30,308 nucleotides of DNA from the UHGV virus genome UHGV-0218987, one strand, 5' to 3'. The position numbers and the translations under genes are program-made. The notes beneath the pieces are model-generated. The model was not told the origin of the DNA. It saw only the letters and a list, made by a program, of their open reading frames with translations, and searched no databases. The DNA is from a virus. This document shows positions 3,189 to 28,263 of this stretch, piece after piece (positions within the stretch are counted from its first letter, which is position 1; each line of letters opens with the position of its first letter).

Positions 3189-5933
3189 TTAACCTTTAGA
3201 AAAAACAGACAGTAACGGAAGTGTAAAAGTCGACACACCAGTATTCATCATGCAGGTTTTACCACCTGAGTATCCAGATATGGTTTGCGAAACTGGACTT
3301 CCTGTTGTTGGGAAAATGGTGATTTCATCCCCCCCCTTCAATACTCTAACTTTGCCTGTAACATCAACCGATGAACTTGAAACAGACGTGAGAGATCCGT
3401 TGGTCATTGTATAAAAGTTTATAGTTCCTGTTGCTGTTCTGCTTACACCACATCCTGATTTTTGCTTCTGTTTATAGTTAAACAATACCAGCAGGCCAAC
3501 AGGCATTGACTCAAGCTCAACTGCTGTAGACTGGTAGGTCTTACTGCCGTTTCTCATGTCAGGAGCCTCATCATCTGGATCAGAAAAATTATACCCAAGA
3601 GTTAAATCATTAACCGTGGCATTATTCCCTGTTATTCCTTTGACTTGATTAACACTTAACGGTATGTAATTAAACCCTGCAAAAAGCGGTGTTAACTTTT
3701 CTCTAAATAAAAGGCCTGGTGGGTATACTAACGAAGGTGTACCATCATATGTCACTGAGATAATATTAAGTCCCTTTTTAAGGGTTCCAATGCACGTTGT
3801 TTGTTTGCCTGTAAATGATGTTAGCCCATTGCTGGCAACTTTACCTGATAGATAAGAAGAGTTCCTGATGTCATTGAGAATGACATTGAACTGGTTAACA
3901 CGATCTGATGAAGTATAAGTTGGGTTATATGGCTCAAATAATGTTACAGAGATATCGCTTGTATCACTCCATACAAAATACCGACAAATAACATTTTCAT
4001 TTGAAGGCGTAATCCTTCCCCATCCACCAAGTGCATCAAGATAATCACCTCCACTTAATATCGAAATTGATGGGTAGTATCTGGTATTTGAAGGGTATCC
4101 AATACCAATAAATGAAAGTTGAGTAGTAGGGATTAGGTTCTTATTTTTTACAGCTGTATAAACGCGCTCTTTTAATACCTCTTTTGCAGCATAAGCACCG
4201 ATGTATGCATGTCCTATCGTTGATGGATGGCTCTGGTCAAAGACAGTACCGCCGTCACGTTTGGCAACATCAGATATAGAGTACGCGCCTATATCTGCAT
4301 AAGCGTCAGTCGTGGCAATGGACAAATCCAAAAACTCGACCTTTGGGAAAAGGCGTTCGATACGCTTCTTAATGGCTGACTCCAGGAAAGCCTTTGGCGC
4401 ATCGTTATTGTTTACAGTAACAAAGCATATCGGACAACCATATCCCCATGATTTTCTAATCAACTTTTCAAACTCATGAAAATACGCTTCAAATCCTATT
4501 GTTGGAAGTATTCCATTGTCATTAAAACCAAGGCTTATAAAAAGAACATCAGGAGCTTTTTTTCCATACGCAGCATTCTGGAAAAATCCATAGTCGAAGT
4601 TTTCATAACCCCAACCTGTCGCAAGTGACTTGCCAGACGATCCGCAGTTATATGCTTTAAAAATATTATCCGTGCTGTCGGATAGCATATTGAGGCAATC
4701 AGTAAAAATTCTGAACCATGAATGCTTACCGCCATTTAAATTATGATTGTAGTTGGTAGAGTTAAGATTTCCATCGCTACCAGTCGGGTTCGGGGTCCAT
4801 CCTGAACTATAGGCTCCATCCGTTATAGAATCACCAATGATACCTACATGGCAATCTTCTATAGTTGATTGGTAACTCTGCTTATTTGCAAATTTAGCAA
4901 TTGTTCCAAGAGCAGTAAAATCAGGGCCATTGTTAGATAGCCCAACATCAAAAACATGCTCATTACCCCATTTGTCTCTTGTGAGAATTTTACCTTCTCC
5001 AAGAAATTTAGTCACATCATCTGACGGTAAAAAATTACACCTGATGGTTACATCTTTTGGGATGTAAATCTGACCAGGGAAAGCATAAATTGCACTTCTG
5101 TTGTCAGTTGTCGTGTTAATAACGACATTTGGAACATAAAATATTGACGTTGCGTCAGTTCTATATTGTCCGTTAACAAGCTCAGATCTGAGAACCGCAT
5201 CCCCAACACCTCTCCAAGCGCCAGGACCAACACCACCAGTAGTGGTAGGAGTTGATCCTGGAGGAACTACTTTGGGCAGTGGCCCGTCCCATCTGTAGTA
5301 TTCGCCGTTGCTTTCCCAGAGAAGAACATCGTTAAGATAGATGATGGTATTACCCAACTCAAAAGATTTCTTCGTGTTATAGCCATACAATCCATTTTCT
5401 AAGGTTTCAATAATGGTGCTAAGTATGGTACTAAATTTTGCATAAAGATCATCAGTATATTTTTTTGTAGCAGCATCTTGGGGAAGAGATGGATCACGAA
5501 GATTTCTAATATAATTTGAAAGCGCGTCATAAAAAATTGCTACGTCATTTGGCTTTCTTAAAGCCAACTTATCATTTCTTAATGATTGTTGAATGAGCAT
5601 AGTAAGTTTATCAAACGCATCCTCATGTACCTCAGCGAAGAACTTACCCTGATTACGTAAATCCGTTTCCTGAGTAGCTGGTAGTTCTCGTGATATAGAT
5701 ATCTGATGACCGTTAGCCAACGCCTTCGAGAGAATTACATTACCGCCGTTATATCCTCCAGCCCCGGTAACTGTGTAATCAGTATCAAGAGCCAGCACAG
5801 CGATATTTTCGTCAAGGTCAACCACCTGTACTACCAGATCAGATTTATTGAAAACCCTAAAGGTGTACGGAAATGATGTCGTAACGCCGTTACCTGTGTA
5901 TTCGTTGTGGTCAACTTCGGTTGAGACCGTCAT
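3189..5933 (-). CDS. Tailspike / tail fibre with SGNH (GDSL) esterase domain
   Basis: 914-aa ORF with GGAGA RBS. N-terminal YTGNGVTTSFPYTF virion-attachment-like motif; central blocks GIIGDSITDG (GDSxxDG), ISLGFNDNG (GxND) and DQSHPS that together match SGNH hydrolase blocks I/III/V. Gene is visibly more AT-rich than its neighbours. Confidence 0.75.
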   Translation of the reverse strand: MTVSTEVDHNEYTGNGVTTSFPYTFRVFNKSDLVVQVVDLDENIAVLALDTDYTVTGAGGYNGGNVILSKALANGHQISISRELPATQETDLRNQGKFFAEVHEDAFDKLTMLIQQSLRNDKLALRKPNDVAIFYDALSNYIRNLRDPSLPQDAATKKYTDDLYAKFSTILSTIIETLENGLYGYNTKKSFELGNTIIYLNDVLLWESNGEYYRWDGPLPKVVPPGSTPTTTGGVGPGAWRGVGDAVLRSELVNGQYRTDATSIFYVPNVVINTTTDNRSAIYAFPGQIYIPKDVTIRCNFLPSDDVTKFLGEGKILTRDKWGNEHVFDVGLSNNGPDFTALGTIAKFANKQSYQSTIEDCHVGIIGDSITDGAYSSGWTPNPTGSDGNLNSTNYNHNLNGGKHSWFRIFTDCLNMLSDSTDNIFKAYNCGSSGKSLATGWGYENFDYGFFQNAAYGKKAPDVLFISLGFNDNGILPTIGFEAYFHEFEKLIRKSWGYGCPICFVTVNNNDAPKAFLESAIKKRIERLFPKVEFLDLSIATTDAYADIGAYSISDVAKRDGGTVFDQSHPSTIGHAYIGAYAAKEVLKERVYTAVKNKNLIPTTQLSFIGIGYPSNTRYYPSISILSGGDYLDALGGWGRITPSNENVICRYFVWSDTSDISVTLFEPYNPTYTSSDRVNQFNVILNDIRNSSYLSGKVASNGLTSFTGKQTTCIGTLKKGLNIISVTYDGTPSLVYPPGLLFREKLTPLFAGFNYIPLSVNQVKGITGNNATVNDLTLGYNFSDPDDEAPDMRNGSKTYQSTAVELESMPVGLLVLFNYKQKQKSGCGVSRTATGTINFYTMTNGSLTSVSSSSVDVTGKVRVLKGGDEITIFPTTGSPVSQTISGYSGGKTCMMNTGVSTFTLPLLSVFSKG

Positions 5934-5986
5934 GTTAAATCTCCAGATAGTCGCAGCACCCGTTGCGCCGCATATCCGATCATTCT

Positions 5987-6010
5987 ATTACCTAAAAAAC
6001 CACATATGGA
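5987..6010 (+). promoter_or_regulatory. Copy (ii) of conserved regulatory cassette (ATTACCTAAAAAACCACATATGGA)
   Basis: Homologous to the cassettes at 3111-3137 (minus) and 24999-25022; located in the divergent intergenic region between the tailspike and the 6129 gene. Confidence 0.45.
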
Positions 6011-6036
6011 TAGATAACCCATAAATACGAACAGAT

Positions 6037-6053
6037 ATTACCTTTCAGGTAAT
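6037..6053. promoter_or_regulatory. Perfect inverted repeat ATTACCT-TTC-AGGTAAT (operator-like)
   Basis: 7-bp perfect arms with a 3-nt spacer; same motif family as 25061-25077, 7485-7499 and 6416-6434. Confidence 0.5.
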
Positions 6054-6089
6054 TCGCAAAACGTGCTGGATAGCAAACAAATTATTTGC

Positions 6090-6109
6090 TACTGTATAAA
6101 TATACAGTT
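6090..6109 (+). promoter_or_regulatory. LexA (SOS) box TACTGTATAAATATACAGTT overlapping the promoter of the 6129 gene
   Basis: CTGT-N8-ACAG with an AT-rich spacer, a near-ideal match to the TACTG(TA)5CAGTA consensus; flanked by a -35-like TTGCTA (6086-6091) and TATTAC (6109-6114); 20 nt upstream of the start codon. Confidence 0.75.
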
Positions 6110-6128
6110 ATTACATGGAGAAGATAAG

Positions 6129-6386
6129 ATGCAGCAGTATCACTATCCACTGGAAGACGGATTTACCGAAAGGATTCACACGCCGGGAGGCGTCAGGTCA
6201 CTGGTGGAGGGATCGCACTTGATGAAATTACTCCGGGATCTCGATAAGGATGGATTTAATGTCGATGGCCCACTTGCCGAACTGACTGCACTGATTAACT
6301 ACGTCACCAGCTCACAGATGTCTATGCGGGATCTGCAAACACATCTCGACTATTGTGCCGAACAATTACGAAAACAAACCAGATAA
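6129..6386 (+). CDS. Small SOS-regulated protein, paralog of the C-terminal domain of the Bro-N antirepressor-like protein (candidate antirepressor or modulator)
   Basis: ATG at 6129 with GGAGA RBS (the listed ORF start at 6063 lies upstream of the LexA box and is unlikely). The product aligns with the C-terminus of the 6702..7412 protein (…GV…L-E-S-LM-LL…DG…V-G…AELT…RD-QTH…Y). Confidence 0.6.
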   Translation: MQQYHYPLEDGFTERIHTPGGVRSLVEGSHLMKLLRDLDKDGFNVDGPLAELTALINYVTSSQMSMRDLQTHLDYCAEQLRKQTR

Positions 6387-6400
6387 GATTTGAAATTACC

Positions 6401-6452
6401 AAGAGGAGTGCTTATATTTACCTTTGCGGTAAATTTACATCGCACTCCTCTT
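6401..6452 (+). other. Large nested hairpin (AAGAGGAGTGC … GCACTCCTCTT) enclosing inverted repeat ATTTACC-N5-GGTAAAT
   Basis: 11-bp perfect outer stem with a roughly 30-nt loop that itself contains a TTACC/GGTAA-family inverted repeat (6416-6434); followed by a second hairpin GGCACTGG-CAAAAT-CCAGTGCC at 6468-6489. Confidence 0.5.
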
Positions 6453-6522
6453 GTGCCATAGTAATCGGGCACTGGCAAAATCCAGTGCCGGGATTGGCGT
6501 CCCGAGTTACTAAGTGGCGCAT

Positions 6523-6545
6523 ACCACGCCAGACGTGGTTTTTTT
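6523..6545 (+). terminator. Rho-independent terminator (or attenuator) downstream of the 6129 gene
   Basis: Stem ACCACG / CGTGGT with loop CCAGA followed by seven T. Confidence 0.6.
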
Positions 6546-6701
6546 ATGCGTTAAGCACAGCCATATCCGAATTATGGTGGGCTGGGCAGGGGTCCGAAAG
6601 GACGCCGGTACCACTTAGGCCGGTACGCCAACCTTGTCCAGTTCACCACCAGTAATTGGCGTTGCGGTGGTGATTAAAATCACTAAGTGGAGATAACCAC
6701 C

Positions 6702-7412
6702 ATGGCTAATGCTCAAACTGCCATCTTCAAATTTGAATCTGTTAACCCTATCCGTTCCATCATTATCGATGGCCAACCATGGTTTGTAGCCCAAGACGTT
6801 TGTAGTGCGCTGCGTATCCAAAACGTCACCCAAGCACTTGAAAAACTGGATGATGATGAAAGGTCTATGTTCAACATAGGGCATGAACATCGTGCAATTT
6901 TTGACAGCCGAGTAAAAGAGATCAACATCATCTCCGAGTCAGGCCTCTACACACTGATCCTCCGCTGCCGCGATGCGGTGACACCAGGCACTATCCCCTA
7001 CCGCTTTCGTAAATGGGTTACAGGTGAGGTTCTTCCTCAGATCCGCCGCACCGGAAGTTACATTAAAAACTCGCTCCCGCAGGAAGAACGCATAAAGATG
7101 GTTGCCGACCAGGTAGCCAACGCCACAGCATCAGCAGTGATGCAGGCAATGAAGATAGAGAACAAAACCTACAGTGCCCCACTGAAGCCCGGCTACCGCA
7201 GTCTGATTCATTCTCCGTCTGGTGTTCTCGGCCTGACGGAGAACTCACTGCTGATGAATTTGCTGAACCAGTTGCAGGAAGACGGGCACGATGTATCGGG
7301 CGCGGCGGCGGAGCTGACCACCATGTTTTGCTACATCGTTGGTGTGAGCAAATGCCTGCGTGATATCCAGACTCACGCGGAGTACATCAACGACAAGGCT
7401 GGGTTCTTCTGA
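6702..7412 (+). CDS. Bro-N / KilA-N-type antirepressor-like protein
   Basis: N-terminal Bro-N signature (FKFESVNPIRSIIIDGQPWFVAQDVCSALRIQN … YRFRKWVTGEVLPQIRRTGSY). Start at ATG 6702 with GGAGA RBS (the listed ORF starts at 6687). C-terminal about 70 aa paralogous to the 6129..6386 product. Confidence 0.75.
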   Translation: MANAQTAIFKFESVNPIRSIIIDGQPWFVAQDVCSALRIQNVTQALEKLDDDERSMFNIGHEHRAIFDSRVKEINIISESGLYTLILRCRDAVTPGTIPYRFRKWVTGEVLPQIRRTGSYIKNSLPQEERIKMVADQVANATASAVMQAMKIENKTYSAPLKPGYRSLIHSPSGVLGLTENSLLMNLLNQLQEDGHDVSGAAAELTTMFCYIVGVSKCLRDIQTHAEYINDKAGFF

Positions 7413-7456
7413 CGGGCGGCGGCACAGGGATGTGCCTTTAAATAATTCTGTACAGA

Positions 7457-7499
7457 TTGCAGACTGTGGGTGAATAGCGTACTATTACCTCAAGGGTAA
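7457..7499 (+). promoter_or_regulatory. Sigma70-like promoter (TTGCAG-N17-TACTAT) overlapped by inverted repeat TTACCT-CAA-GGGTAA
   Basis: -35 at 7457-7462 and -10 at 7480-7485 with a 17-nt spacer; the inverted repeat at 7485-7499 (5 of 6 arm positions complementary) overlaps the -10 and +1 region, suggesting repressor control. Confidence 0.5.
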
Positions 7500-7559
7500 A
7501 CGGATTGGTTTCATTTTTATTAATCCGTGTAATGAACTTATGAGATATGAGGTAATGTC

Positions 7560-7739
7560 ATGCGAAACGAAAAATTGCAGATGCGTAGAGCGCAAGCTGC
7601 CGCAAGACGTTCTTTCAATGGAAGCGTAGAGTACGTAAAAGTTACTATGACAAAAGATCACGCAAGTCGCGTATCCCGAGCTTTCTTTGATTCTCGTAAC
7701 AATAAGGAAAATTATGAGTTCGTCTGCGTCGCAGAATGA
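7560..7739 (+). CDS. Small basic ORF (59 aa) overlapping the start of the downstream gene; candidate antitoxin or regulator
   Basis: ATG at 7560 with GAGGT RBS 6 nt upstream; ends at TGA 7737-7739, overlapping the 7714 start by 26 nt in another frame. Below the 60-aa cutoff of the supplied ORF track. No homology claimed. Confidence 0.35.
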   Translation: MRNEKLQMRRAQAAARRSFNGSVEYVKVTMTKDHASRVSRAFFDSRNNKENYEFVCVAE

Positions 7740-8259
7740 TAAAAATCAAATTGTCAGATATAAGGGTCGAGTATTGCATACGCAAAATTTCTCGGCCCTT
7801 TGTGCATCTGATCTTGAGCTGAAGAAAGTATCTGATGCCTTTACCCAGTATTGGAAAACGGGATACCATCCATCTCTTGGTAAAGATGCTGCATTTGCTC
7901 GTCCGACAGAAATGCTTAAACTAAATGTCAGGCATACTCATGTCGATAACCAAGACTATATTCCAGAAGATAGTGATAAAAAACACACTGGTAAAAAATC
8001 ATCTTGGGATGCATGGAAAAATATAGCGTCTGTGCAAGTAAAATGCATACCAACAAGTGATTGCTTTTTAGTTTATTCGGTAAATCACAATCGTGATGCG
8101 CTGGTTATGTTTTTTGTTGACGCAGATGCCCACAACATAACTGAGCAAGAAGAGTTTAAAGAGGAAGCAATCACTATCAGTTATCAATTCTTTGAGAAAA
8201 CAAAAACAGAACCAATGCCTTTAGAAGAAGATCTTTTTTCTGATAAATGGAAGGAATAA
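7714..8259 (+). CDS. AT-rich cargo protein, candidate YafO-like toxin (ribosome-dependent mRNA interferase family)
   Basis: ATG at 7714 with AAGGAA RBS (the listed ORF starts at a TTG at 7687). Motif pattern GKDAAFA … KLNVRHTHV … CFLVYSV … ALVMFFVDADAH resembles, from memory, conserved YafO blocks (GRDA…, RVAHIHL, LVY, AWLLIAIL-PEPH). Followed by a strong terminator. Confidence 0.5.
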   Translation: MSSSASQNDKNQIVRYKGRVLHTQNFSALCASDLELKKVSDAFTQYWKTGYHPSLGKDAAFARPTEMLKLNVRHTHVDNQDYIPEDSDKKHTGKKSSWDAWKNIASVQVKCIPTSDCFLVYSVNHNRDALVMFFVDADAHNITEQEEFKEEAITISYQFFEKTKTEPMPLEEDLFSDKWKE

Positions 8260-8281
8260 GCCCGCGTTGCGGGCTTTTTTG
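8259..8281 (+). terminator. Rho-independent terminator after the 7714..8259 gene
   Basis: GC-rich stem GCCCGC / GCGGGC followed by six T. Confidence 0.7.
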
Positions 8282-8317
8282 TGTCTGCGGATTCCCGCCC
8301 GGGCGGCGGTGGCATTC

Positions 8318-8345
8318 GTTAAAAACAAGGCCGCGAAAGCGGCCT
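8318..8345 (-). terminator. Rho-independent terminator after the 8359..8919 gene (convergent with the 8259-8281 terminator)
   Basis: Stem GGCCGC-GAAA-GCGGCC followed on the minus strand by CTTGTTTTTAACG. Confidence 0.6.
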
Positions 8346-8357
8346 GTGACATGTCAC
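8346..8357. repeat. 12-bp perfect palindrome GTGACATGTCAC (copy 1 of 3)
   Basis: Exact palindrome immediately 3' of the 8359..8919 stop codon; identical copies at 26035-26046 and 28486-28497. Confidence 0.8.
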
Positions 8358-8358
8358 G

Positions 8359-8919
8359 CTACATTGATATATGATTCATAAAGTAGCTTAAAGATTTACT
8401 TCCCAGAAAAGAAATTTCTTTTCCTGGATATGTCGCAATAATTGAGCATGACTTATCCCCGTTAGAGGTAACAAATCCTGAATAACCTACTTGTTCTTTA
8501 CCATTTTGTTGCTTGGCTAAAAAGTAGAGGTAGCTTATCTTTTTGCCCTCTGGGTAAAACTCTGCCAAACCAGTATCGGTGATTGAATATTTTATTCTCC
8601 CGCCTTGAGTAACGTTTTCCATCTCAAGTTTAGCTATGTCTTTTCTGTTGTATTCAGCATTGATTTTCCTTTCGAAATCAATGTTGTTTTCAAATGAGTA
8701 GGAAGCAACAGTCTGAATAGATGGGAACACGTTTATCTGGATGCCTCCACAGTCGGCACAGGTATAAAGGTATGAATCAGATGGAATCCCCATAAAAGAA
8801 AACTGAGTTACCTTAAATTTATCGTTATCTCCAAAGTATTGAAGTTCGCATTTAACATTTTGCCCTGCAAAAGAAAATGCAGACATCAATATTGAAACAA
8901 AAAATATAATTGCCTTCAT
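8359..8919 (-). CDS. Secreted (signal-peptide) protein of unknown function; AT-rich cargo gene appended to the late operon
   Basis: Signal-peptide-like N-terminus MKAIIFFVSILMSAFSFA; start overlaps the stop of the 850-aa gene (TAATG); visibly AT-rich; followed by a terminator. Confidence 0.7.
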   Translation of the reverse strand: MKAIIFFVSILMSAFSFAGQNVKCELQYFGDNDKFKVTQFSFMGIPSDSYLYTCADCGGIQINVFPSIQTVASYSFENNIDFERKINAEYNRKDIAKLEMENVTQGGRIKYSITDTGLAEFYPEGKKISYLYFLAKQQNGKEQVGYSGFVTSNGDKSCSIIATYPGKEISFLGSKSLSYFMNHISM

Positions 8920-8921
8920 TA

Positions 8922-11474
8922 TTATTTACCTAGCATGAACTGCGATGGTGGGATCAGAAAGTCGTTACCCTGCTCACGCTCAACACGGCGCTGATAACGC
9001 TCAAGAGAGCCTGGGTCAAGGGCATCTTGTATCCGGTTCAATATTAAACCATTCATCGCCGTACGAAGCCAGAACACGTTGAGGAATGGCGTATTGTCAA
9101 GTGCCGTGCGATACCAGTCACCCAAATCTGCATCCCCTCTCGTGGTCTGCTGGAGCAGCGTGATAATGCTGTCAGCGTTCGATGCTGCTGGCCCCATTAG
9201 CGACGTAACCGGCCCGGCCCCCATGCGGTTGACCTCGCCAAACATGAAGTCACCCAAGATGCCAAGACCGCCCCCCTGAGATGCGGCTGCGAGAAACGTC
9301 TTGGCATCTGCCGGGCGTGGTGTTTGCCCTTTCAGCATGAGTTTTGACTGCATGGAGATATAACCAAACATAGTCGCCCAGACAAAGAGGTTTGCAGCAC
9401 CAAGGAAAGCCCCCTTCCCGTTACGTAGCAGCGCATTCGTCAGCGATCCGGTTTTCGACTCACCAAGCCCAGCAGGAATATAACCACGCCCGAATACTTC
9501 GCGTCCTAGTACGTTCTGCATGAAGCTTGCAGTGAACGATTTGTACTGACCAGCGAATCGTATTGCTTCCCCAGCCACCGTTCCTGGCACCGTGCCCATC
9601 TTCATAAACGCCTGCGTGCGATCGCCAGGCTCTGACATGGCGATATTCAGGCGGTCAAGGATGTAGCCGCGCAACTGCCCTTCCAATTGATCGCGTGCGT
9701 CAGCGATAGCGCGCTGCGTTGGTTTGATCCCCTTACTCTCTACATAACCGGCAATCACTTCGTCAGGCACGCCGCGGATGCCGCTGGTCGTCATGAACTT
9801 ACGACCTTCGCTATCGGCCATGTCCATGTTGCGAAAAATTTCCCACTCACGTTCGCCAATACCGTGCAGATCCAGCACGCGTCGCAGGTCTTCCGGTAGC
9901 CGCGCATGAGACTGGTCAGCATTCTTTGCAAGCCAGTTGGTTATCATCATGGCGTTGCTGTTGCGACCGCTCTCGGTCCAGAAGTTCATGAGGTTGTACT
10001 TAAAGAAAAGCTGCTGCGCGCGACCAAGCTTTCCATTCAGCGTGTCATCACCAGATATGCGCCGGATGATTTCCTGCGTCATGGAGTCGGAATAAACTCC
10101 GATAGAGGAAAGGATCTCTTTCTGCTCCGCGCTGTTGTAACGCGTGAAGCGGCCTCTCATAGCACCAAGCAACGCCTGCATAAAATTCTGCCCTTGGTAG
10201 CGCATCTCGGTAGCGGCGATAGGCACGTCGTTAAACGATGAGATTACCGCACCACCAAGTTGGCTCATACGCAACCAGCCGCGTACAGCCGCCGACGCAT
10301 TGGCCCAGCCTACGCTGCCAGGAATATTTAGCGAGCCGTCAACCTGCGGCATTACGGTACGGTTAATGCGACGCACCTTCGTCATGTAGTCAGCCAACGC
10401 TGCCGGTCTTCCGGATTTGCTGATATCTTCAGCAATGGCGTCCGTCAGGTACTTAAACATGTTCTGTGGGTTAGTGCCCAGTACGCGCATCATGCCCGTT
10501 GTGCGGGCAGCGCTGTTTAAGCCACCAAACAGCGCTTCTCGCAGGCTGCCGGTGCCGAATTGCTGGTTGTACTCGTGCCACGAGATACCATCTTTGAAGT
10601 GCAAAATTCGCTCTTGGCTGGCGCGTTTAGCTGCGTTCGCCGATCCCTTAAAGCCATTCATCCAATCGGGCTTTTCAGATGTAAGATGCACGCCGGAAGC
10701 CAGCCCGTTATAAATGTTACGCATGAACTGCTCGCGGTCAGCCACGCCGTCAAAAGTGCGCTCATCAAGGCGCGGGAGAATAGCATTTCGCCATGCTTCA
10801 TAACCTGCGGCGCGGATCTTCATGATGTCGTGTGACTGGCGAACTATATAGCCCGGCTCTTTGCGTATCCATGCCCCGGCGCGGTTCTCATCAATGCGCG
10901 CAGTTTCCTGCCATTTCATGATGATTTGTGCAGCGCTTACGGATTGCTTTGTCATACCGTCAGTTGACTGCCCGCGCCCTATGCGCCACATTGCATCGGC
11001 AATTTCCCGGTCATTGCTGCCGCTGGCGATGAATTGCACCAGTCCGGCACGGTCAAAATCGTAGTTGATACCGGAATGATACTTGCCGCGCAGTTGCGCC
11101 ACCTCCGAAGATACCGACCGGCGGGCGCCGGTACGCGCATCGTTGCGGCCAACCAGCATTGCTTCAAGCCCGATATCCGGGCGGTCTTTCCAGATAGTAC
11201 GAAGCTCTCTAAGTCGTTGTGCGGCAATACGGGCGTTGATTGCCTTATTGCGAGCCTCAATCTGTTTTGCCAGCATATCGGCATTGCTCAGTTCTTCCGC
11301 TGCGCGCATCGCGGCCTCTTCCAGAGACAGCGCCTCATTGGTCGCCAGAATTCGCCTAGTGGTGTCGTTCATGTCACGCACCAGCGACTCCATCTCATCG
11401 GAAGAAAGCTCGCGACCAGCGGCAGCATTTACACTGCGCTCGCACTGCGTCAAAAATTCGTTTGCTGCCATCAC
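8922..11474 (-). CDS. Large internal virion / DNA-ejection protein (850 aa)
   Basis: Long ORF in a run of three large, translationally coupled genes downstream of the tail tubular genes; assignment by position and size (podovirus internal-core analogue), not by a recognised motif. Confidence 0.55.
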   Translation of the reverse strand: MMAANEFLTQCERSVNAAAGRELSSDEMESLVRDMNDTTRRILATNEALSLEEAAMRAAEELSNADMLAKQIEARNKAINARIAAQRLRELRTIWKDRPDIGLEAMLVGRNDARTGARRSVSSEVAQLRGKYHSGINYDFDRAGLVQFIASGSNDREIADAMWRIGRGQSTDGMTKQSVSAAQIIMKWQETARIDENRAGAWIRKEPGYIVRQSHDIMKIRAAGYEAWRNAILPRLDERTFDGVADREQFMRNIYNGLASGVHLTSEKPDWMNGFKGSANAAKRASQERILHFKDGISWHEYNQQFGTGSLREALFGGLNSAARTTGMMRVLGTNPQNMFKYLTDAIAEDISKSGRPAALADYMTKVRRINRTVMPQVDGSLNIPGSVGWANASAAVRGWLRMSQLGGAVISSFNDVPIAATEMRYQGQNFMQALLGAMRGRFTRYNSAEQKEILSSIGVYSDSMTQEIIRRISGDDTLNGKLGRAQQLFFKYNLMNFWTESGRNSNAMMITNWLAKNADQSHARLPEDLRRVLDLHGIGEREWEIFRNMDMADSEGRKFMTTSGIRGVPDEVIAGYVESKGIKPTQRAIADARDQLEGQLRGYILDRLNIAMSEPGDRTQAFMKMGTVPGTVAGEAIRFAGQYKSFTASFMQNVLGREVFGRGYIPAGLGESKTGSLTNALLRNGKGAFLGAANLFVWATMFGYISMQSKLMLKGQTPRPADAKTFLAAASQGGGLGILGDFMFGEVNRMGAGPVTSLMGPAASNADSIITLLQQTTRGDADLGDWYRTALDNTPFLNVFWLRTAMNGLILNRIQDALDPGSLERYQRRVEREQGNDFLIPPSQFMLGK

Positions 11475-13168
11475 ATCCCCCGGTTAATCATACAGGCGGC
11501 AAATGCCCGGAAAGCGTTGCTCATGCTATTGTCGCTGGCGTCGGCACGAATATCATTGAGTTTCTGGCGCAACGTGGTCGCAAGATCAGGGTTATCGACA
11601 GCGATATCGTCAAGCAGGGCGTTACTCAGGTTGAGCTCGTTATCAAGGTCTGCAGCGGCAGCGGTAATTTCATGATCTGCCTTTTGCGTTTCTTGATAAA
11701 CCCGATCGGCTGTTTCGCTTGCTGGGCGAGCCGTTTCATCAACCTGCCGTGCCGGGTTCTGTATGCGATGGATGGCGCGTTCACGCAGTGCCGGTTTGTG
11801 CAGTTCATAGAAGGGCTCAACATCTGGGCTACGTCCTTCCATCATGTGTGCCAGCGCAGCGCGATACGCCTGCTGGTTCACGTTCCAGTCAGCATCCCTG
11901 ATGGCGCTTGCGGCAGTGCGAACTGCGCCAGCGACCGGCGACATCTGCATGCCGTCCAGGATCTGCTGCGCACGCTCGGAAATGGTGACTTTCAGATCGT
12001 CGGGGATATCGCCGCGGGAAATCTGAGACTGGCGCCAGCGCGCCTGCTCTGCTGTCGCGTTCTGCTCCAGCGATGTGTTGATCTCCTGATTGCGTGCAGC
12101 GATGGCGTCTTTCTCGGCCTGAATCTCTTTCAGTGCCCTAGAGCGCGCATCCTTAAACTTCATCCGCTGCCCCTGATACTTTTTGGTGCGCTGCTGCAGC
12201 GTCGCATCAAGCGAGTCAGCATGACGTTGATTAGCCGCAAGCTCGGCACGCAGGTCGGCAACGTTACCGATCTGCCCGCTCTGTAACTCCTGCTGGCGCG
12301 CCATATAGTCAGGAACCACGTCGTCATAAGCCCGGCTGTATGCGTAGCTCTCCGCTTCACTGGAAATGGCCGCCGCCAGATCTGCGTTAGCGCCAACCTC
12401 AGGGATATTCACGCCCGCCGGAATGTTGTCAGGCGTTATCACCGGGGTTGGCTGCGCATCGCCAGAAAACGCCGGGGACTCTCCCGTTGCAGCATCGGGA
12501 ACGCGACGCGGTCGCACGATATCGGCGATAAGGCCGCCGCCGGCATGCATTAGACCGCCAGCCATCGTGTTAAAGAAAGTACTTTCCAACGCGTTGCTAT
12601 AGGTGAAGTCGTCACCTTCCGCCGCCGCTGCCAGCCCGGTAAGCGGCACGGTCACCACCGCCTGCGCTGCCCCCATGCGTGCACCAGCAACAAATCGCTC
12701 GCCAAATCGGCCAAGCACAGAAGCCGCCTTTGCTTCTCCAGCGAACGGAACCAGCGCCAGCGCCACGTTACCAGGATCTGCCATTGAACCAGCTAGGCTG
12801 GCTGCGAAATTAAGCGGCGTGGCTACCCACCCGCTCGGTGCCGACATCGCGATCTGCTGGCGTGCCAGAGAATCTTTGCGTTCGGCAATAACATGATCGA
12901 GAAAAGCCTGCGTAACGCCAGAATCTGGCACGTTTATGCTCTTTACGCCGTACTGCTTCAGGAGCTCATCCGCTTCCTGCTTACTGATAACTGTAGAGTT
13001 TGGGTCATTCGCCAGCGAGTCGGCCTGCGCAAAGCGGTAGCCGGACATGACCGGCCCCTCTTCAAATCCCTGCTTAAGGGAAGAAAGCAGCGATTCGCCA
13101 AGCCCTGCTGGCGCGTTGCCAATTGGCTGGTTAATTCCCTGTCCCGGATCATCTGTGTAAATTGGCAT
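11471..13168 (-). CDS. Internal virion / DNA-ejection protein (565 aa)
   Basis: Coupled to flanking genes by 4-nt overlaps; Ala/Gly-rich with a coiled-coil C-terminal half; assignment by position. Confidence 0.55.
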   Translation of the reverse strand: MPIYTDDPGQGINQPIGNAPAGLGESLLSSLKQGFEEGPVMSGYRFAQADSLANDPNSTVISKQEADELLKQYGVKSINVPDSGVTQAFLDHVIAERKDSLARQQIAMSAPSGWVATPLNFAASLAGSMADPGNVALALVPFAGEAKAASVLGRFGERFVAGARMGAAQAVVTVPLTGLAAAAEGDDFTYSNALESTFFNTMAGGLMHAGGGLIADIVRPRRVPDAATGESPAFSGDAQPTPVITPDNIPAGVNIPEVGANADLAAAISSEAESYAYSRAYDDVVPDYMARQQELQSGQIGNVADLRAELAANQRHADSLDATLQQRTKKYQGQRMKFKDARSRALKEIQAEKDAIAARNQEINTSLEQNATAEQARWRQSQISRGDIPDDLKVTISERAQQILDGMQMSPVAGAVRTAASAIRDADWNVNQQAYRAALAHMMEGRSPDVEPFYELHKPALRERAIHRIQNPARQVDETARPASETADRVYQETQKADHEITAAAADLDNELNLSNALLDDIAVDNPDLATTLRQKLNDIRADASDNSMSNAFRAFAACMINRGM

Positions 13169-13169
13169 G

Positions 13170-15791
13170 TTATCGTCCTGATTGCTGGCCGTTCTGGAAA
13201 ATGTTAATCAGGTTGTCGCGCTGACTTTCTGCGCTGTATTCCTTAGACTGTCCGGGAGTATATTTCACCGGAGTATCAATGAACTTGGTAATGCTGTTCC
13301 ATACTGATCGGTTGGTTGTTCCCAGTTTCGCCAGATCGTTGAACGGCACCGTAATCGGGTTGCCGTCGGCACCGTTGACGATCAGCCCGTTGAGCATCAG
13401 GGTAAGTCCTGTTTCGTCGCTGTTGGTAACCCACTGCGCATTATCACGAATGCGGGAGATACTCTGCTCACGGTTGACCTCATCAGGTAGCCTTGGGTCA
13501 CCAATAAGCGGCATAATCTGATCTGCTGACAGGTTTTTCAGATACGCATTGGCACCATCGTTAACGTCACGAATATCTATCCCTGCACGCTTAGGTAGCC
13601 GCCAAGTGCCATTGGTCTGGTACTGCTCGCCGAGGATGTCCTGATACGCCTGTTTTGCTGCATCAGACGCCGACATTCCGCGCTGCATGTTGATGTAAGT
13701 AAGTCGTTTTCCCTGCTCGTTGAAGTTATTCCACACGGCAGTGCCACCAGGCTGAACAACCATCGTGCCAGCAAAATCTTTCGATTGGTCATTCCATGAC
13801 GAGTCGGCGCTATCCGCGTCGGTTTTCTCAAGACTGCCGCGTAAGTCAGCAGTTTTAACGCTACGGTTTTGCCAGAGCGCATTTGCCGCGCGCGGGTTCT
13901 CGGTAGCCATGACAACCTGCAACGCAGGATAAGCGCTCTTCTGAACCTGCTGCATCACCTGATCCGAGTATTTGCCGAACGACTGCGCCACCGACTGAAT
14001 GGCCTTTACGCTAGATTCCTGCGTGTTGTCAATACGCTGCAGTACATCATTGACCATGGACTCCGGTAAAACTTTTTTGCTCATTATCCCCAGGCGGTCT
14101 TTTTCAGACTGTATTCGGGAAACTAGGTATTCACCAGATGAAGGGTCATTCAGGTACTGCTGGAATGCAGCCTGCACAACCGGAGAGTTTTGTTGCAGCC
14201 ATGCCCCCGGATCCGCTTCCCGCGCCTTCAGTACCTGCCCAAGCTTGACCTTTGCCGATGCATAAAGCTCTGCTTTGTATTTAAAGTCAGGGTCGTTTTC
14301 CTGCGGTGCCATTGCCTGCACGGCGGCGGTACCCTGCTGGACGTTGCCCTGCATAATGGTCTGATAAACAGGTTGTAGCGTCATTGCCTGCTGGTATTGC
14401 TGGAAGGTTTTTTCCATCTGCAGGCGCTCGGCAGGCGCTGCCTGAAGCGGCATAACGGCGGCCCATTCGTGCGCTGAAATAGGCGTCACCTGCTTACCGG
14501 CCTCAATTTTGGATAGGTCGTCCTGCATTCGACTCTGTAGCGCAACGCGACCGGCTGAAGCCTGCATGTCGTACATGCCAGCAACCTTGCTCATCATCTG
14601 CGACTTTTTGTCCGGACTCATGGCGTTCCAGAATGGCTGTGCGATGAGGTTTTCCATCGTCGCAGATCCAGGAATAGCTCCAGCACTGCCAGTTACTTTT
14701 GCCACATAATTGCGCGTCTCGTCGTATGGGATAGCTGCGGCAAACTGGGCGTTACTGACTTCGCCTGTGCGCGGGTCGCCAATCTGTTTAATCCAGCCGT
14801 CAACCTTTCCTGGGCCAGCGTTATAGGCAGCTACTGCCAGAACCGGGTTATTGTCGTATTTCTTCATCTGCGCGCCGAAATAAGCTTGCCCCAAGCGGGC
14901 ATTATAGCGCGGGTCATTCAACCATTTATCGCGGTCCCACGGCACGCCAGCAAGGCGGGCAGCTTCGGGGCCAGTATCTTCCGTCACCTGCGCTACGCCA
15001 ACAGCGCCTTTTGGCGACACCAGAGGTGTTCCGTCCTTTCCGTACTGATTTCCGCCACTCTCCTGCCAGATTATTGCAGAGAATAACTGCGCCTCACTCG
15101 GTGTATCGGTTACCTCAATCTTGCCGTTCGGACCCATCATCTGTTGATACATCGGCACATACCACGCCTCCGCCGCACCGTTCGCGGCATTCTCGCGCCA
15201 CGAAACCCAGTTCTGTTCGATCTCTTCCTGACTCTGGCCGTGGGCTTCGCCGTAAGCGATGATGCTATGATATGCCTTCAATCCTGCCTGGTTTGCCATT
15301 GTCGGGTTACGGAACTGCATCGATAGGTTTTTTAGTGTCGCATCCTGCATATCCGCCTCATACTGGCGAACCTGTCCTATTTCGTACCTCCCGGCCTGCG
15401 TAGTGAACTGAATGCGCTGCTGCTGCGCCTGCTGCATGAAAGCATTACGAGCCTGTTCATCCGGCAGCGACATAGCCAGTTGCTCGACCTGGGCATCAAA
15501 CTGCTGCGTATACTCCTGACCTTTTCCAATAGCATTTTTCCCTTTCAGGTTAAGCAATCCTGTTTCAGGATTATTCAGCAGATCGCTGCTTATCTGACTG
15601 AGGTTAAGAGATGCCTCCTGAGCCAGAGCGATATTGGCACGCTGTTTTGCCTGCCCCAAAACATCAATTGCCTCTGTCCCTGCCCGAACAAAAGCATCAC
15701 CAATACCTTGCTGAGAAAACGTCTGCAAGCCTGCTGACTGAACTCCACGACTCTCAACCTGACGTCCGGATACTGTTGGTACGACTGGCAT
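13170..15791 (-). CDS. Internal virion protein with lytic transglycosylase (SLT/GH23) domain
   Basis: SLT motifs IIWQESGGNQYG … GVAQV … AAYNAGPGKV. Start taken at ATG 15791 (MPVVPTVSG…, TAATG overlap with the upstream stop) rather than the listed 15866. Confidence 0.75.
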   Translation of the reverse strand: MPVVPTVSGRQVESRGVQSAGLQTFSQQGIGDAFVRAGTEAIDVLGQAKQRANIALAQEASLNLSQISSDLLNNPETGLLNLKGKNAIGKGQEYTQQFDAQVEQLAMSLPDEQARNAFMQQAQQQRIQFTTQAGRYEIGQVRQYEADMQDATLKNLSMQFRNPTMANQAGLKAYHSIIAYGEAHGQSQEEIEQNWVSWRENAANGAAEAWYVPMYQQMMGPNGKIEVTDTPSEAQLFSAIIWQESGGNQYGKDGTPLVSPKGAVGVAQVTEDTGPEAARLAGVPWDRDKWLNDPRYNARLGQAYFGAQMKKYDNNPVLAVAAYNAGPGKVDGWIKQIGDPRTGEVSNAQFAAAIPYDETRNYVAKVTGSAGAIPGSATMENLIAQPFWNAMSPDKKSQMMSKVAGMYDMQASAGRVALQSRMQDDLSKIEAGKQVTPISAHEWAAVMPLQAAPAERLQMEKTFQQYQQAMTLQPVYQTIMQGNVQQGTAAVQAMAPQENDPDFKYKAELYASAKVKLGQVLKAREADPGAWLQQNSPVVQAAFQQYLNDPSSGEYLVSRIQSEKDRLGIMSKKVLPESMVNDVLQRIDNTQESSVKAIQSVAQSFGKYSDQVMQQVQKSAYPALQVVMATENPRAANALWQNRSVKTADLRGSLEKTDADSADSSWNDQSKDFAGTMVVQPGGTAVWNNFNEQGKRLTYINMQRGMSASDAAKQAYQDILGEQYQTNGTWRLPKRAGIDIRDVNDGANAYLKNLSADQIMPLIGDPRLPDEVNREQSISRIRDNAQWVTNSDETGLTLMLNGLIVNGADGNPITVPFNDLAKLGTTNRSVWNSITKFIDTPVKYTPGQSKEYSAESQRDNLINIFQNGQQSGR

Positions 15792-22781: not shown

Positions 22782-23074
22782 TCCTGTTCACTGGCCTCTT
22801 TGGCCATCTTCAAATACTGTTCAGGGCAATGCGCCATAACGCGCTGAAACAGCTCCAGCGCCAGATTGCGTTGCCCCTCATTAAATGCCATTGCCATAGC
22901 ATCCATCGGAGAGATAGCGGAAAACACCCGGCCTTTCTCCAGCACAGACCAGACAACGCGACGCCCCTGTTCACTGCTCATGACAAAGCGAATGTCATCA
23001 ATTTCACGCTGTGCCATGTCACGTTGCTTACGGGCGTTTTCTTCTTTCAGTTGATCGTCTTCGTAATCTGTCAT
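22778..23074 (-). CDS. Hypothetical small head-module protein
   Basis: 98-aa ORF overlapping the portal stop and the scaffold start (4-nt overlaps). Confidence 0.45.
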   Translation of the reverse strand: MTDYEDDQLKEENARKQRDMAQREIDDIRFVMSSEQGRRVVWSVLEKGRVFSAISPMDAMAMAFNEGQRNLALELFQRVMAHCPEQYLKMAKEASEQE

Positions 23075-24750
23075 TGTGATTGCCCACCCTGACCACTAAC
23101 TGCATTCGCCATAGCTGACAAAACACTCGGATCCGAAGTTTTAGCTTCGCTTAGCGTCTTGGCACCCTGTGCCGCCGCCATCCCCATCGCCATCATTTGT
23201 TGCTGCTGTTGTTGCTGTGCCCGTTGCTGGCGAGCCTGCTCAACCTGTTCCTGCGGAACAATGACGGTTGGAGACACTCCAGACATATCAGCGAATGCAT
23301 CGATCGCCTGATCAACGTTGAGTTTGTCGAGAGCTTCTGGTTTCGCTTGCGCAAGTTGACCAATGAAGTTAACCGTGGACGCCAGACTGGACAGGCCGAT
23401 AGACTTCTGCGCCTGAGCCATGACGGAAATGTATTCGACCTTCAGGGGCATGCCTTCCATCGCGTCAGGCGGTGGCGGCAACATGTTTTTACGCACCATC
23501 ATCGAGAAAGCGCGGTCAATGAGAGGATTAAGACATTCGTCGTTCAGACGCTCCAGAACCGGCCCCAACATCAGAAGTTTTTCTTCTTTCATTTCGATCA
23601 CCGCTTCAACAGGCATCGAGCGGGTATTGATGTTCTGCAACATCATGAACAGATCGACAAAGTAGGCGCTGTTAATGATTTGACGAGTGTCCTGAATGTC
23701 TGCCACCAAATCTGCTGTACTGGGGTTAACCAGATAAGCAGGCCTGAAGCCATCCTGACCAGTAATCTGATCGATATACGTGATGTCGCCAGGAAGAAGG
23801 GAGGCGCGCTGATTCTTGAGGGAAGTCGGAGCAACCATCGGAGGATTGGTGGCTTTATCAATCAACTGCGACTTGCGCTTCTGGAGAAGCTGCAATGCCT
23901 TAACAGGTCCAAGCGCCAGCATACCCGGGCATGATGATCCATAAACATCTTCGCCGTTAACTTCCCAGCGCGGAGCCATAATTGGAAACTCATCGAATCC
24001 GGACTCACGCAACAACTTGTCGTTATCGCCACCAACCTCGTAATAAACCGATTTGAATGGCTTGTTCTTGCTATCCAGCTTCGATGTATCGCGGTCAATG
24101 TTCGGATAAACCGAATGCATCACTTCAATCCACTTCTCGTAGGTGCCGCTTTCCCACATGCTTTTTACGGATTCGCTGACGTTATTTAGTCCGAATTCCT
24201 GAACAAGCTGACGAACAGTCATAGAGAACTTGCGAAAACAGGTGTCCACACTGCCACGAGGTGAGTTAGCCAGGTAGTAACTTCCTATCGGGAATGGCAT
24301 TGTACGAATGATGTCCTCGTCATCCTCCAGCACCGCCATTGCACCGGTGCTGTATGTGCCGAGGCTTCCGTATAACTGCGGCAGCGACTGATAGAGATTC
24401 GACTTATTGAACATATCGTTCATGCGGTTCTGCACTGCCTCAAGCCACAACTTAACAGGGCCATAATCCATCATTTCAGGATCTGGCGTAGCCAGGCGAA
24501 ACCACGGACGCACGGGGCTTGTGATGCCTGACATCATGCCGCTGGCGAGAGTGCGCGCCGCCATAGTCCCAGTCGAATCAATAATGCGTGTATTGCGTCG
24601 ATCGTTACGGTTGACCTCAGAAGTCAGAAAGCGGGAACCACGCGGGTTGATGTAATCACTCAACTCGCGCCAGTGCGGCTCGAACGACTGACGCTCGCTT
24701 TCAAGTTGTGCGAACTGTTTGTTCAATCGCTCTTTAGTTGTTTCCGCCAT
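23071..24750 (-). CDS. Portal (head-to-tail connector) protein
   Basis: 559-aa ORF upstream of the scaffold and capsid genes with GGAG RBS; size and position consistent with a podovirus portal; acidic Gln-rich C-terminus. Confidence 0.7.
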   Translation of the reverse strand: MAETTKERLNKQFAQLESERQSFEPHWRELSDYINPRGSRFLTSEVNRNDRRNTRIIDSTGTMAARTLASGMMSGITSPVRPWFRLATPDPEMMDYGPVKLWLEAVQNRMNDMFNKSNLYQSLPQLYGSLGTYSTGAMAVLEDDEDIIRTMPFPIGSYYLANSPRGSVDTCFRKFSMTVRQLVQEFGLNNVSESVKSMWESGTYEKWIEVMHSVYPNIDRDTSKLDSKNKPFKSVYYEVGGDNDKLLRESGFDEFPIMAPRWEVNGEDVYGSSCPGMLALGPVKALQLLQKRKSQLIDKATNPPMVAPTSLKNQRASLLPGDITYIDQITGQDGFRPAYLVNPSTADLVADIQDTRQIINSAYFVDLFMMLQNINTRSMPVEAVIEMKEEKLLMLGPVLERLNDECLNPLIDRAFSMMVRKNMLPPPPDAMEGMPLKVEYISVMAQAQKSIGLSSLASTVNFIGQLAQAKPEALDKLNVDQAIDAFADMSGVSPTVIVPQEQVEQARQQRAQQQQQQQMMAMGMAAAQGAKTLSEAKTSDPSVLSAMANAVSGQGGQSQ

Positions 24751-24764
24751 TTCAATGACTCCGG

Positions 24765-24971
24765 TTACTGGCCAAGCAGCGTTTTACCGCTGGTATTAGC
24801 GGTTGATGTGTCGCCCTGAGAACCGGTAAGCAGCGTAGAACTACGACCAGCAGCAGCGCGACGGCGACGAGTTTCTTCGTCGCGGGCATCAACAACGGCG
24901 GCATCCTGCTCCTGTGGTGCTGCCTGAACTTCTGGTGTTGCAGGCACTGACGGTGAGCTACCCATGCACAT
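24765..24971 (-). CDS. Small low-complexity hypothetical protein upstream of portal
   Basis: 68-aa ORF with GGAG RBS ending 14 nt before the portal RBS; the alternative overlapping frame (24752..24991) was judged less likely. Confidence 0.35.
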   Translation of the reverse strand: MCMGSSPSVPATPEVQAAPQEQDAAVVDARDEETRRRRAAAGRSSTLLTGSQGDTSTANTSGKTLLGQ

Positions 24972-24998
24972 ATCAATGACTCCGTACGCAATTAAATT

Positions 24999-25039: not shown

Positions 25040-25077
25040 TTGACATTTAACGCATGAATTATTACCTTTAAGGTAAG
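25040..25077 (+). promoter_or_regulatory. Promoter-like region (TTGACA) with inverted repeat ATTACCT-TTA-AGGTAA
   Basis: Consensus -35 hexamer; the operator-like inverted repeat sits where the -10 would be; lies upstream of the tRNA and Gp49-like module. Confidence 0.45.
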
Positions 25078-25398: not shown

Positions 25399-25475
25399 GT
25401 GGCATTAGCTCAGTTGGACAGAGCAACCGCCTTCTAAGCGGTTGGTCGCAGGTTCGAATCCTGCATGCCGCGCCA
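25399..25475 (+). tRNA. tRNA-Arg (anticodon UCU), argU-like, phage-borne
   Basis: Cloverleaf folded by hand: acceptor stem GTGGCAT / ATGCCGC (one G-U pair), D-arm GCTC…GAGC, anticodon stem ACCGC / GCGGT with loop CTTCTAA (anticodon TCT), T-arm GCAGG-TTCGAAT-CCTGC, discriminator G, encoded CCA. Confidence 0.85.
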
Positions 25476-28192: not shown

Positions 28193-28263
28193 CACCGTGG
28201 TAATAGTTACCGTTGTGGTAATAGTACCATGCAAAATAAAGCCGCCATAGTTGGCGGCAGTAT

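Follow-up and report, generated by a model that had tools for sequence, protein, structure and literature searches.

Here we analysed a stretch of 30,308 nucleotides (nt) from the viral genome UHGV-0218987, called the window below and supplying all coordinates, and within it the interval between the tailspike gene and the ejection-protein gene (5934-8921). This interval is best read as an island of antirepressor modules and two swappable cargo slots, built from known kinds of parts, whose cargo pair is most likely a type II toxin-antitoxin system; we give this reading a probability of about 70%. The regulatory half (5934-7412) carries two antirepressor modules. In the cargo half (7457-8919), a swappable slot begins directly after a repressor-type palindrome, O3, and holds a two-gene operon with its own terminator (module 3). 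A second such slot closes the late operon and holds an orphan periplasmic protein (module 4). The initial annotation had described the whole island but placed it at 7457-8919, which covers just the cargo half. All features are listed in Table 1.

The interval is a genuine variable prophage hotspot between conserved flanks. We compared 62 intervals (59 distinct) using the tailspike N-terminus and the ejection protein as anchors: those of 69 IMG/VR loci, gathered with the ejection protein as query, that had both anchors, together with those of Escherichia phages TL-2011b and phiV10 and of the window. Measured from the ejection-protein stop codon to the tailspike start, interval length varied from 241 base pairs (bp; empty) to 5874 bp, and the 59 distinct sequences contained 61 clusters of open reading frames (ORFs). 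The slot after the second antirepressor gene is alternatively filled by a pair encoding a 59-amino-acid (aa) and a YafO-like protein, as in the window, a 74-aa and 288-aa membrane-protein pair, a DUF4760 protein, a HicA toxin with a DUF1902 (HicB-like) partner, DUF2335 proteins, or several domain-less proteins. In TL-2011b the slot holds Arc-like repressor and P22-type Ant genes (locus L001, 7006-8190); its island also carries the small Ant, the Bro-N Ant and the YafO cassette, making three antirepressor genes in all.

The edges of the first slot are well defined. Where relatives carry other cargo, their similarity to the window breaks off at 7497-7501, where O3 ends, and picks up again at 8284; the breakpoints at 7497-7501 and 8283/8284 are recurrent. 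One relative (L005), 97.7-99.4% identical to the window, is 195 bp longer at the 8283/8284 junction. Close relatives keep an intact gene for a "transmembrane anchored protein" (cluster c3), which the window has lost apart from a 3' remnant. A survey of 5426 complete E. coli genomes with 5900-9300 as query found some part of this sequence in 553. The YafO cassette was present in 61 genomes, the secreted-protein gene of the second slot in 56, and at least 80% of the whole interval in just 11 of the 553. Since each item is carried by so many genomes and most of the interval by so few, the two assort independently. The P2/P4 prophage and satellite hotspots of anti-phage systems (PMC9122126) are similar: conserved flanks enclose short cassettes that vary greatly, G+C is low, and single cassettes recur in different mobile elements. 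They differ in that the cassettes tested here have no convincing defence-model match and the left edge of the slot coincides with a repressor-type operator.

The 181-aa product of the cargo pair matches Pfam YafO_toxin at 26.3 bits (cutoff 25), and all 23 of the 23 members of its aligned enterobacterial family match the same model, with a best E of 2.9e-6. Searches of the PDB sequences with the single sequence and with a profile gave no match. The 59-aa ORF upstream has its own GAGG ribosome-binding site and is under purifying selection (nonsynonymous to synonymous polymorphism ratio, pN/pS, 0.34-0.57). The two genes are kept together in four contexts: the window, the same slot of a Serratia epsilon15-like prophage, a position among siphovirus tail genes, and a site beside the primase gene of a Pectobacterium AlpA/primase satellite-like element (L076, 5774-6546, 60-aa and YafO-like). 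In the last of these, the palindrome ATTACCTGTGAGGTAAT lies 55 nt upstream of the pair and is the sole copy in 12.5 kb; either the cassette moved along with its operator or the element responds to an epsilon15-type repressor.

On these sequence relationships we read the pair as a mobile type II toxin-antitoxin-like module, in which the small 59-aa protein would most likely neutralise a ribosome-dependent mRNA endonuclease, the 181-aa toxin. Like E. coli yafNO, the pair combines a toxin in Pfam YafO_toxin and a small upstream gene that overlaps the toxin gene; the toxin may have a RelE-like fold. In contrast to yafNO, the toxin is about 50 aa longer and has an extended N-terminus and an internal insertion, its upstream partner bears no relation to YafN (Phd/YefM), and the pair is found on phages and satellite-like elements rather than in the dinB operon.

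The protein in the second slot is an orphan. A profile search placed its relatives in just eight clusters among 1.84 billion representatives, with no distant ones, and neither a domain nor a structure match was found; the sole PDB match was a non-significant signal-peptide similarity to T5 Llp (E 0.14). Because its gene follows the ejection gene after 2 nt, the 186-aa protein is probably made together with the late operon. In relatives, the end of the late operon carries other small membrane, periplasmic or signal-peptide proteins, including a 118-aa ORF (L040, cluster c48) of the Rap1a family (Pfam 1.3e-12). Rap1a proteins are periplasmic immunity proteins against type VI peptidoglycan-amidase effectors. 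From this position and these occupants we would guess at an envelope-level role for the 186-aa protein. More specifically, it and its alternatives could block entry of superinfecting DNA or neutralise incoming peptidoglycan hydrolases. All occupants are small membrane or signal-peptide proteins, one of them is of the Rap1a family, and the slot adjoins the ejection genes as sieA does in P22, all of which would fit. The proposal is tentative nonetheless and rather improbable: the 186-aa protein has no homology to any known exclusion protein and a tiny family, and its attachment to the late operon suggests expression during lytic growth.

Module 1 closely resembles the Rep-Ant antirepression system of the Salmonella phage SPC32H, reportedly described by Kim and Ryu in 2013 and by Kim et al. 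in 2016. The 85-aa Ant matches the crystallised protein almost residue for residue (PDB 5D50 chain E, "Anti-repressor protein", E=1.4e-46, residues 2-84). As in SPC32H, a predicted LexA box precedes ant, here TACTGTATAAATATACAGTT, 20 bp ahead of the start codon and kept in relatives, and the gene adjoins the tailspike gene of an epsilon15-like podovirus, an arrangement found in nearly all relatives. Unlike in SPC32H, the repressor gene is outside the window, and there is a second, larger antirepressor that shares the C-terminal domain. A repressor is encoded by both phiV10 and epsilon15, and the epsilon15 record cites 5D50_A for its own. DNA damage would lift LexA repression of the 85-aa Ant, which would then bind the repressor and induce the prophage. 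In several relatives (L004, L067 and TL-2011b), the stretch from the small ant to the isrK promoter has gained a 242-aa minus-strand gene bordered by two palindrome copies (insertion point, window 6386-6412). Its product has an N-terminal membrane helix and a Cys-rich C-terminal part with a weak Stc1-like match.

Module 2, which is present in about half of the compared intervals, consists of IsrK, a C4-type RNA and a Bro-N antirepressor gene. The Rfam IsrK match has its 5' end where the isrK promoter places the start of transcription. IsrK carries two boxes, a1 (TTGGCGT, 6494-6500) and b1 (CTAAGTGG, 6510-6517), and the same two sequences recur in the leader of the second ant. The C4 boxes b2 (CCACTTAG, 6611-6618) and a2 (ACGCCAA, 6625-6631) are complementary to them in both IsrK and the leader. 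Leader box b' overlaps the Shine-Dalgarno sequence GGAG (6689-6692), and the duplex energy is -41.2 kcal/mol versus -30.3 +/- 4.7 for shuffles. The ORF tool placed the start of the second ant at GTG 6687, and ATG 6702 has GGAG 9 nt upstream. Counted from GTG 6687, residues 160-236 match 5D50_E (E=1.3e-13), and this C-terminal domain is 43% identical to the 85-aa Ant.

The arrangement is related to the c4-ant operon of P1 and P7. In its best-supported form, drawn from complementarity and from the Gifsy-1 and P1 precedents, C4 from the same transcript as the Bro-N ant would mask the ant ribosome-binding site, and the upstream IsrK, which carries copies of both target boxes, would compete for C4. 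The Gifsy-1 locus has the order isrK-orf45-anrP, likewise with IsrK and its terminator ahead of the antirepressor gene (PMC4825925). The features shared with Gifsy-1 isrK-orf45-anrP and P1/P7 c4-icd-ant are an IsrK with a leaky terminator, a C4-type RNA and then the antirepressor gene, two C4 boxes complementary to boxes over the ant ribosome-binding site, and specificity alleles that co-vary as between P1 and P7. In contrast to those loci, no orf45- or icd-like ORF ends at or overlaps ATG 6702, where we found just a 14-codon ORF (6574-6618) and mechanical ORFs over the RNA genes. Further differences are that the antirepressor is a Bro-N fusion, that the locus sits among podovirus late genes, and that its promoter carries an epsilon15-type repressor palindrome. 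In the related Uetakevirus vB_EcoP_ZX5, the prophage titre fell about 1000-fold when the gene for the Bro-N antirepressor was overexpressed (PMC9782041).

The pairing among the three RNA segments is maintained across relatives. For the IsrK:C4 interaction, a formal pair count over 20 distinct sequences found all 240 cells paired (100%), with compensatory changes in 7 of 12 pairs. The covariation score was 0.504 versus 0.156 in shuffles and was reached by none of 500 shuffles, and pairing dropped to 32-51% when the partner columns were slid as a control. The leader boxes were compared by box extraction, since the MAFFT alignment shifted their register and column counting of C4:leader was not possible. 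Among 21 distinct relatives, box a occurs as GGCGT, GGTCT, GGAAC or TGCAC and box b as AAGTGG, AGTAGG, AAAAGG or ACAAAGG, in ten combinations. The C4 and IsrK boxes are cognate in 21 of 21, barring three G-U wobbles in box b of IsrK. The leader boxes were legible in 20 of these 21 sequences and are cognate in every one of the 20.

Two other observations concern this module. In L037 and L046, the Bro-N part (window 6672-7140) is swapped for unrelated sequence that includes a 168-aa ORF, and the C-terminal repressor-binding domain is retained; this replacement indicates domain-level antirepressor shuffling, judging from the sequences. A RefSeq "TacA family antitoxin" of E. coli E70 (L077, 2931-3215) lies over the isrK/C4 region. 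We considered it spurious, probably RNA genes mis-called as a protein gene, and left it out of the cargo tally; two mechanical ORFs of the window, 6353-6655 (+) and 6615-6890 (-), are of the same nature.

The modules are separated by the 15-bp palindrome TTACC-N5-GGTAA. Eight sites in the window match it with at most one mismatch, five of them exactly, where 0.5 would be expected. Relatives keep the arms unchanged and vary in the spacer, and a copy of the palindrome precedes the slot irrespective of the cargo carried. In phiV10, the palindromes are concentrated in the gap from the repressor gene to the divergent cro-like gene and stand ahead of other operons too, and the GenBank record of epsilon15 annotates the same sites as protein_bind "repressor", including one between gp19 and the tailspike gene. 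Because of the invariant arms, the phiV10 clustering and the epsilon15 annotation, we take these sites to be predicted prophage-repressor operators, an assignment made before by others and not new here. Further copies lie at 25062-25076, 28189-28203 and 28207-28221, which suggests repressor sites scattered genome-wide, by analogy with the C1 operators of P1. The copy at 25062-25076 is about 70 bp upstream of a 79-aa ORF (24752-24991) that heads the virion block before the 559-aa portal-position gene, and the tandem copies at 28189-28203 and 28207-28221 are just ahead of the likely small-terminase start. We also considered whether the palindrome is the cassette's own (antitoxin) operator, given the copy that precedes the Pectobacterium cassette. 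This was rejected as the main explanation because the palindrome also stands ahead of unrelated cargo and its copies are concentrated in the phiV10 and epsilon15 immunity regions.

Several points weigh against the overall reading of the island given above. PADLOC-DB 2.0 was searched with 25 proteins, five from the island and 20 alternative cargo proteins. The five island proteins matched no PADLOC model, and the 20 alternatives gave just two sub-threshold matches (E 0.002 and 0.006), which were not counted. For the 59-aa protein, Pfam, NCBIfam and PADLOC gave neither an antitoxin nor a DNA-binding domain. The promoter scan found no convincing sigma-70 promoter ahead of the pair, with the best candidate (TTGGTT-17-TGTAAT, 7505-7533) below the scan threshold. 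No homologue of the secreted protein has a known function, the model of its structure was unusable (predicted local distance difference test score, pLDDT, 40), and repressor binding to the palindromes is deduced from motif distribution and another group's annotation. Since a repressor-type operator sits just upstream, the pair may also be silent in lysogens and expressed just with ant, which would suit a lytic-cycle role better than lysogenic conversion. The initial annotation had proposed a hotspot of defence and regulatory cargo. Its variability is borne out by the interval comparison; with no convincing PADLOC match, a defence role for the cargo is at most something that we infer. The slots do repeatedly hold toxin-antitoxin-type pairs (YafO-like, HicA/HicB-like) and membrane or periplasmic proteins, and the pair could be a working toxin-antitoxin system, with cargo that benefits the lysogen through abortive infection, prophage stabilisation or envelope-level exclusion.

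Two alternatives concern what the pair is for. It could be a purely selfish addiction module that stabilises its carrier by post-segregational killing and gives no phage protection, in a slot that merely tolerates insertions. The PADLOC result would fit, as would the presence of the pair in other mobile elements and in two E. coli plasmid records, and we know of no anti-phage activity of canonical yafNO. Toxin-antitoxin pairs of other families are, on the other hand, established abortive-infection systems, and the slot repeatedly carries different small modules delimited alike, resembling known prophage defence hotspots, and we find this explanation rather improbable. The cargo could instead belong to the lytic or induction programme, repressed via O3 in the lysogen, co-transcribed with ant, and acting in host shut-off or exclusion. 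A repressor-type palindrome immediately upstream, the passage from ant (ending at 7412) into the cassette with no terminator, and the want of a strong independent promoter all point this way. However, O3 lies upstream of the sole candidate -35, a position not typical of repression. The isrK promoter shows the same operator geometry, and in Gifsy-1 lysogens IsrK is transcribed at a high level (PMC7067206). Low G+C and a dedicated terminator are also typical of autonomously expressed morons, and we consider the lytic explanation unlikely.

A toxin-antitoxin-type pair in a swappable slot, which we prefer, could also be part of a wider design, one that we hold as speculation and consider unlikely. 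The operators would be island seams: every cassette (ant, isrK-C4-ant and cargo) begins at a palindrome, the YafO cassette retains one even in the unrelated AlpA/primase element, exchange would occur by recombination there, and new cargo would be wired automatically into the repressor circuit. The cargo slot would then be a reservoir of undescribed defence or exclusion modules, including the YafO-like toxin, paired with an antitoxin of a new kind, and several domain-less two-gene pairs. Specificity would be encoded combinatorially by the 4 x 4 box alleles of IsrK, C4 and the leader, which would define many mutually non-interfering antirepressor controls within one phage genus.

The region had also been described as organised like the immI region of P22, with its mnt-arc-ant genes and neighbouring sieA. 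Its position agrees with this. The P22 order is ejection genes 7-20-16, sieA, mnt, arc, sar, ant and tailspike gene 9, and the window runs from ejection genes through the secreted protein, cargo and antirepressors to the tailspike. In both, an antirepressor under antisense-RNA control and a membrane or secreted protein beside the ejection genes lie between the ejection-protein genes and the tailspike. The kind of module does not agree: the window has no homologues of Mnt, Arc, sar, P22-type Ant or SieA, and its antirepressor genes are oriented opposite to the late operon. No island ORF has an Arc/Mnt ribbon-helix-helix domain in Pfam, NCBIfam or PHROGs, and an Arc-like gene was found just in the relative TL-2011b. 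That the region is a true P22-type immI (mnt-arc-ant with sar RNA) plus a sieA-type exclusion gene is highly improbable. The shared position and the Arc-like and P22-type Ant genes of TL-2011b would favour it; the antirepressors are instead of the Bro-N and LexA-controlled SPC32H types, the RNAs are IsrK and C4, and the 186-aa protein, with its cleavable signal peptide, has no detectable similarity to anything annotated.

The window as a whole is part of a Uetakevirus-type (epsilon15/phiV10-like) E. coli prophage, an assignment that follows from the TL-2011b and phiV10 matches and the late-gene order on the minus strand. In megablast, the closest matches of 5900-9000 were TL-2011b (96% nucleotide identity) and phiV10 (92%), and Salmonella epsilon15-type phages matched more weakly. 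Genes for terminase subunits, for head and tail proteins (assigned by position) and for three large internal or ejection proteins, one with an SLT domain, occupy the minus strand from about 30 kb down to 8922. The 559-aa ORF at 23071-24750 occupies the position of the phiV10 head-tail adaptor/portal gene, and phiV10 p20, at the position of the right flank, is annotated "virion structural protein". The tail machinery had been called T7-like; the phage is a podovirus and not T7-like in the family sense, and its virion module, at 92-96% nucleotide identity to phiV10 and TL-2011b, is epsilon15/phiV10-like. The tailspike has a conserved epsilon15-type N-terminus followed by G7C-like and GDSL/SGNH esterase domains and has a cargo-like G+C of 0.38-0.42; its domain set suggests an O-antigen deacetylase rather than a glycosidase. 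A tRNA-Arg gene (anticodon TCT, 25399-25475, +) is intergenic between the terminase genes and the remaining virion block.

Within the interval, the four plus-strand genes listed by the initial annotation were all recovered, together with one minus-strand gene for the signal-peptide protein, and its single antirepressor-like gene proved to be two. The convergent terminators it had noted are real. It had also given the plus-strand genes their own promoters and terminators, which holds for the cargo terminator. Sigma-70-like sites are not enriched (5 versus 8.1 expected) and the isrK promoter alone scores well, which does not bear out independent promoters, and the terminator scan found no terminator between ant and the cargo pair. 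Terminator-like sites overall are enriched in 5500-9500 (12 versus 3.4 expected). G+C is 0.38-0.40 over 7500-9000 versus 0.53-0.57 in the ejection genes (9001-14000). IsrK, C4, the LexA box and the repressor-type palindromes are additions to that annotation.

Table 1 Features of the island and its flanks, in window coordinates.
Feature	Position	Strand	Evidence or remark
Tailspike, 914 aa, left conserved flank	3189-5933	-	Pfam Tail_spike_N, Gp63_3rd_G7C, G7C_GBD, Lipase_GDSL
Palindrome O1 TTACCTTTCAGGTAA, predicted operator	6038-6052		Between tailspike and ant
Predicted LexA (SOS) box TACTGTATAAATATACAGTT	6090-6109		One mismatch to consensus; 0 expected by chance
ant, 85-aa small antirepressor, SPC32H type	6129-6386	+	PDB 5D50 chain E, phrog_450
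Palindrome O2 TTACCTTTGCGGTAA, predicted operator	6418-6432		Abuts -35 of isrK promoter
isrK promoter, TTTACA-17-CATAGT with TG	6434-6462	+	Promoter scan
IsrK small RNA with intrinsic terminator (stem 6523-6539)	6469-6545	+	Rfam RF01394, 67.2 bits (gathering 50)
C4-type antisense RNA	6570-6653	+	Rfam RF01695, 66 bits (gathering 45)
Leader of second ant	6656-6692	+	Target boxes a' 6656-6662 (TTGGCGT) and b' 6683-6690 (CTAAGTGG), read from sequence
Second antirepressor, 236 aa, Bro-N and C-terminal domain	6702-7412	+	Pfam Bro-N 1e-19; anti-repressor PHROGs
Palindrome O3 TTACCTCAAGGGTAA, predicted operator, left edge of cargo slot	7485-7499		Ahead of cargo
59-aa ORF, candidate antitoxin	7560-7739	+	phrog_6685; overlaps next gene by 26 nt
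181-aa YafO-family protein, candidate RelE-fold mRNA-interferase toxin	7714-8259	+	Pfam YafO_toxin
Intrinsic terminator closing cargo operon	8258-8276	+	Terminator scan; 8-bp stem, 6 GC, T-run
Remnant 3' end of "transmembrane anchored protein" gene (c3)	8284-8322	+	Reads ...SADSRPGGGGIR and stop, as the c3 end
Intrinsic terminator of late (virion) operon	8345-8328	-	7-bp stem, 6 GC; annotated terminator in phiV10, conserved
186-aa secreted orphan, signal peptide, four invariant Cys	8359-8919	-	phrog_11983 only; last late-operon gene
Ejection/internal virion protein, 850 aa, right conserved flank	8922-11474	-	Synteny anchor

No individual part of the island is of a new kind: an SPC32H-type Ant, an IsrK/C4-controlled antirepressor, a YafO-family toxin and a prophage accessory hotspot are all known. 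Perhaps of modest interest are the RNA covariation, which is clean, three-way and accompanied by reassorting box alleles, the finding that cassette edges coincide with repressor-type operators, and the catalogue of uncharacterised small cassettes at a well-delimited site. Since about one in ten complete E. coli genomes carries such a prophage, the interval is a compact place to seek new genes for lysogen protection or phage competition. The island also joins two antirepressor triggers in one podovirus, one predicted to be under SOS control and the other under antisense-RNA control with exchangeable specificity. This two-trigger design would bear on how prophages that share a host come to induce one another or escape doing so.

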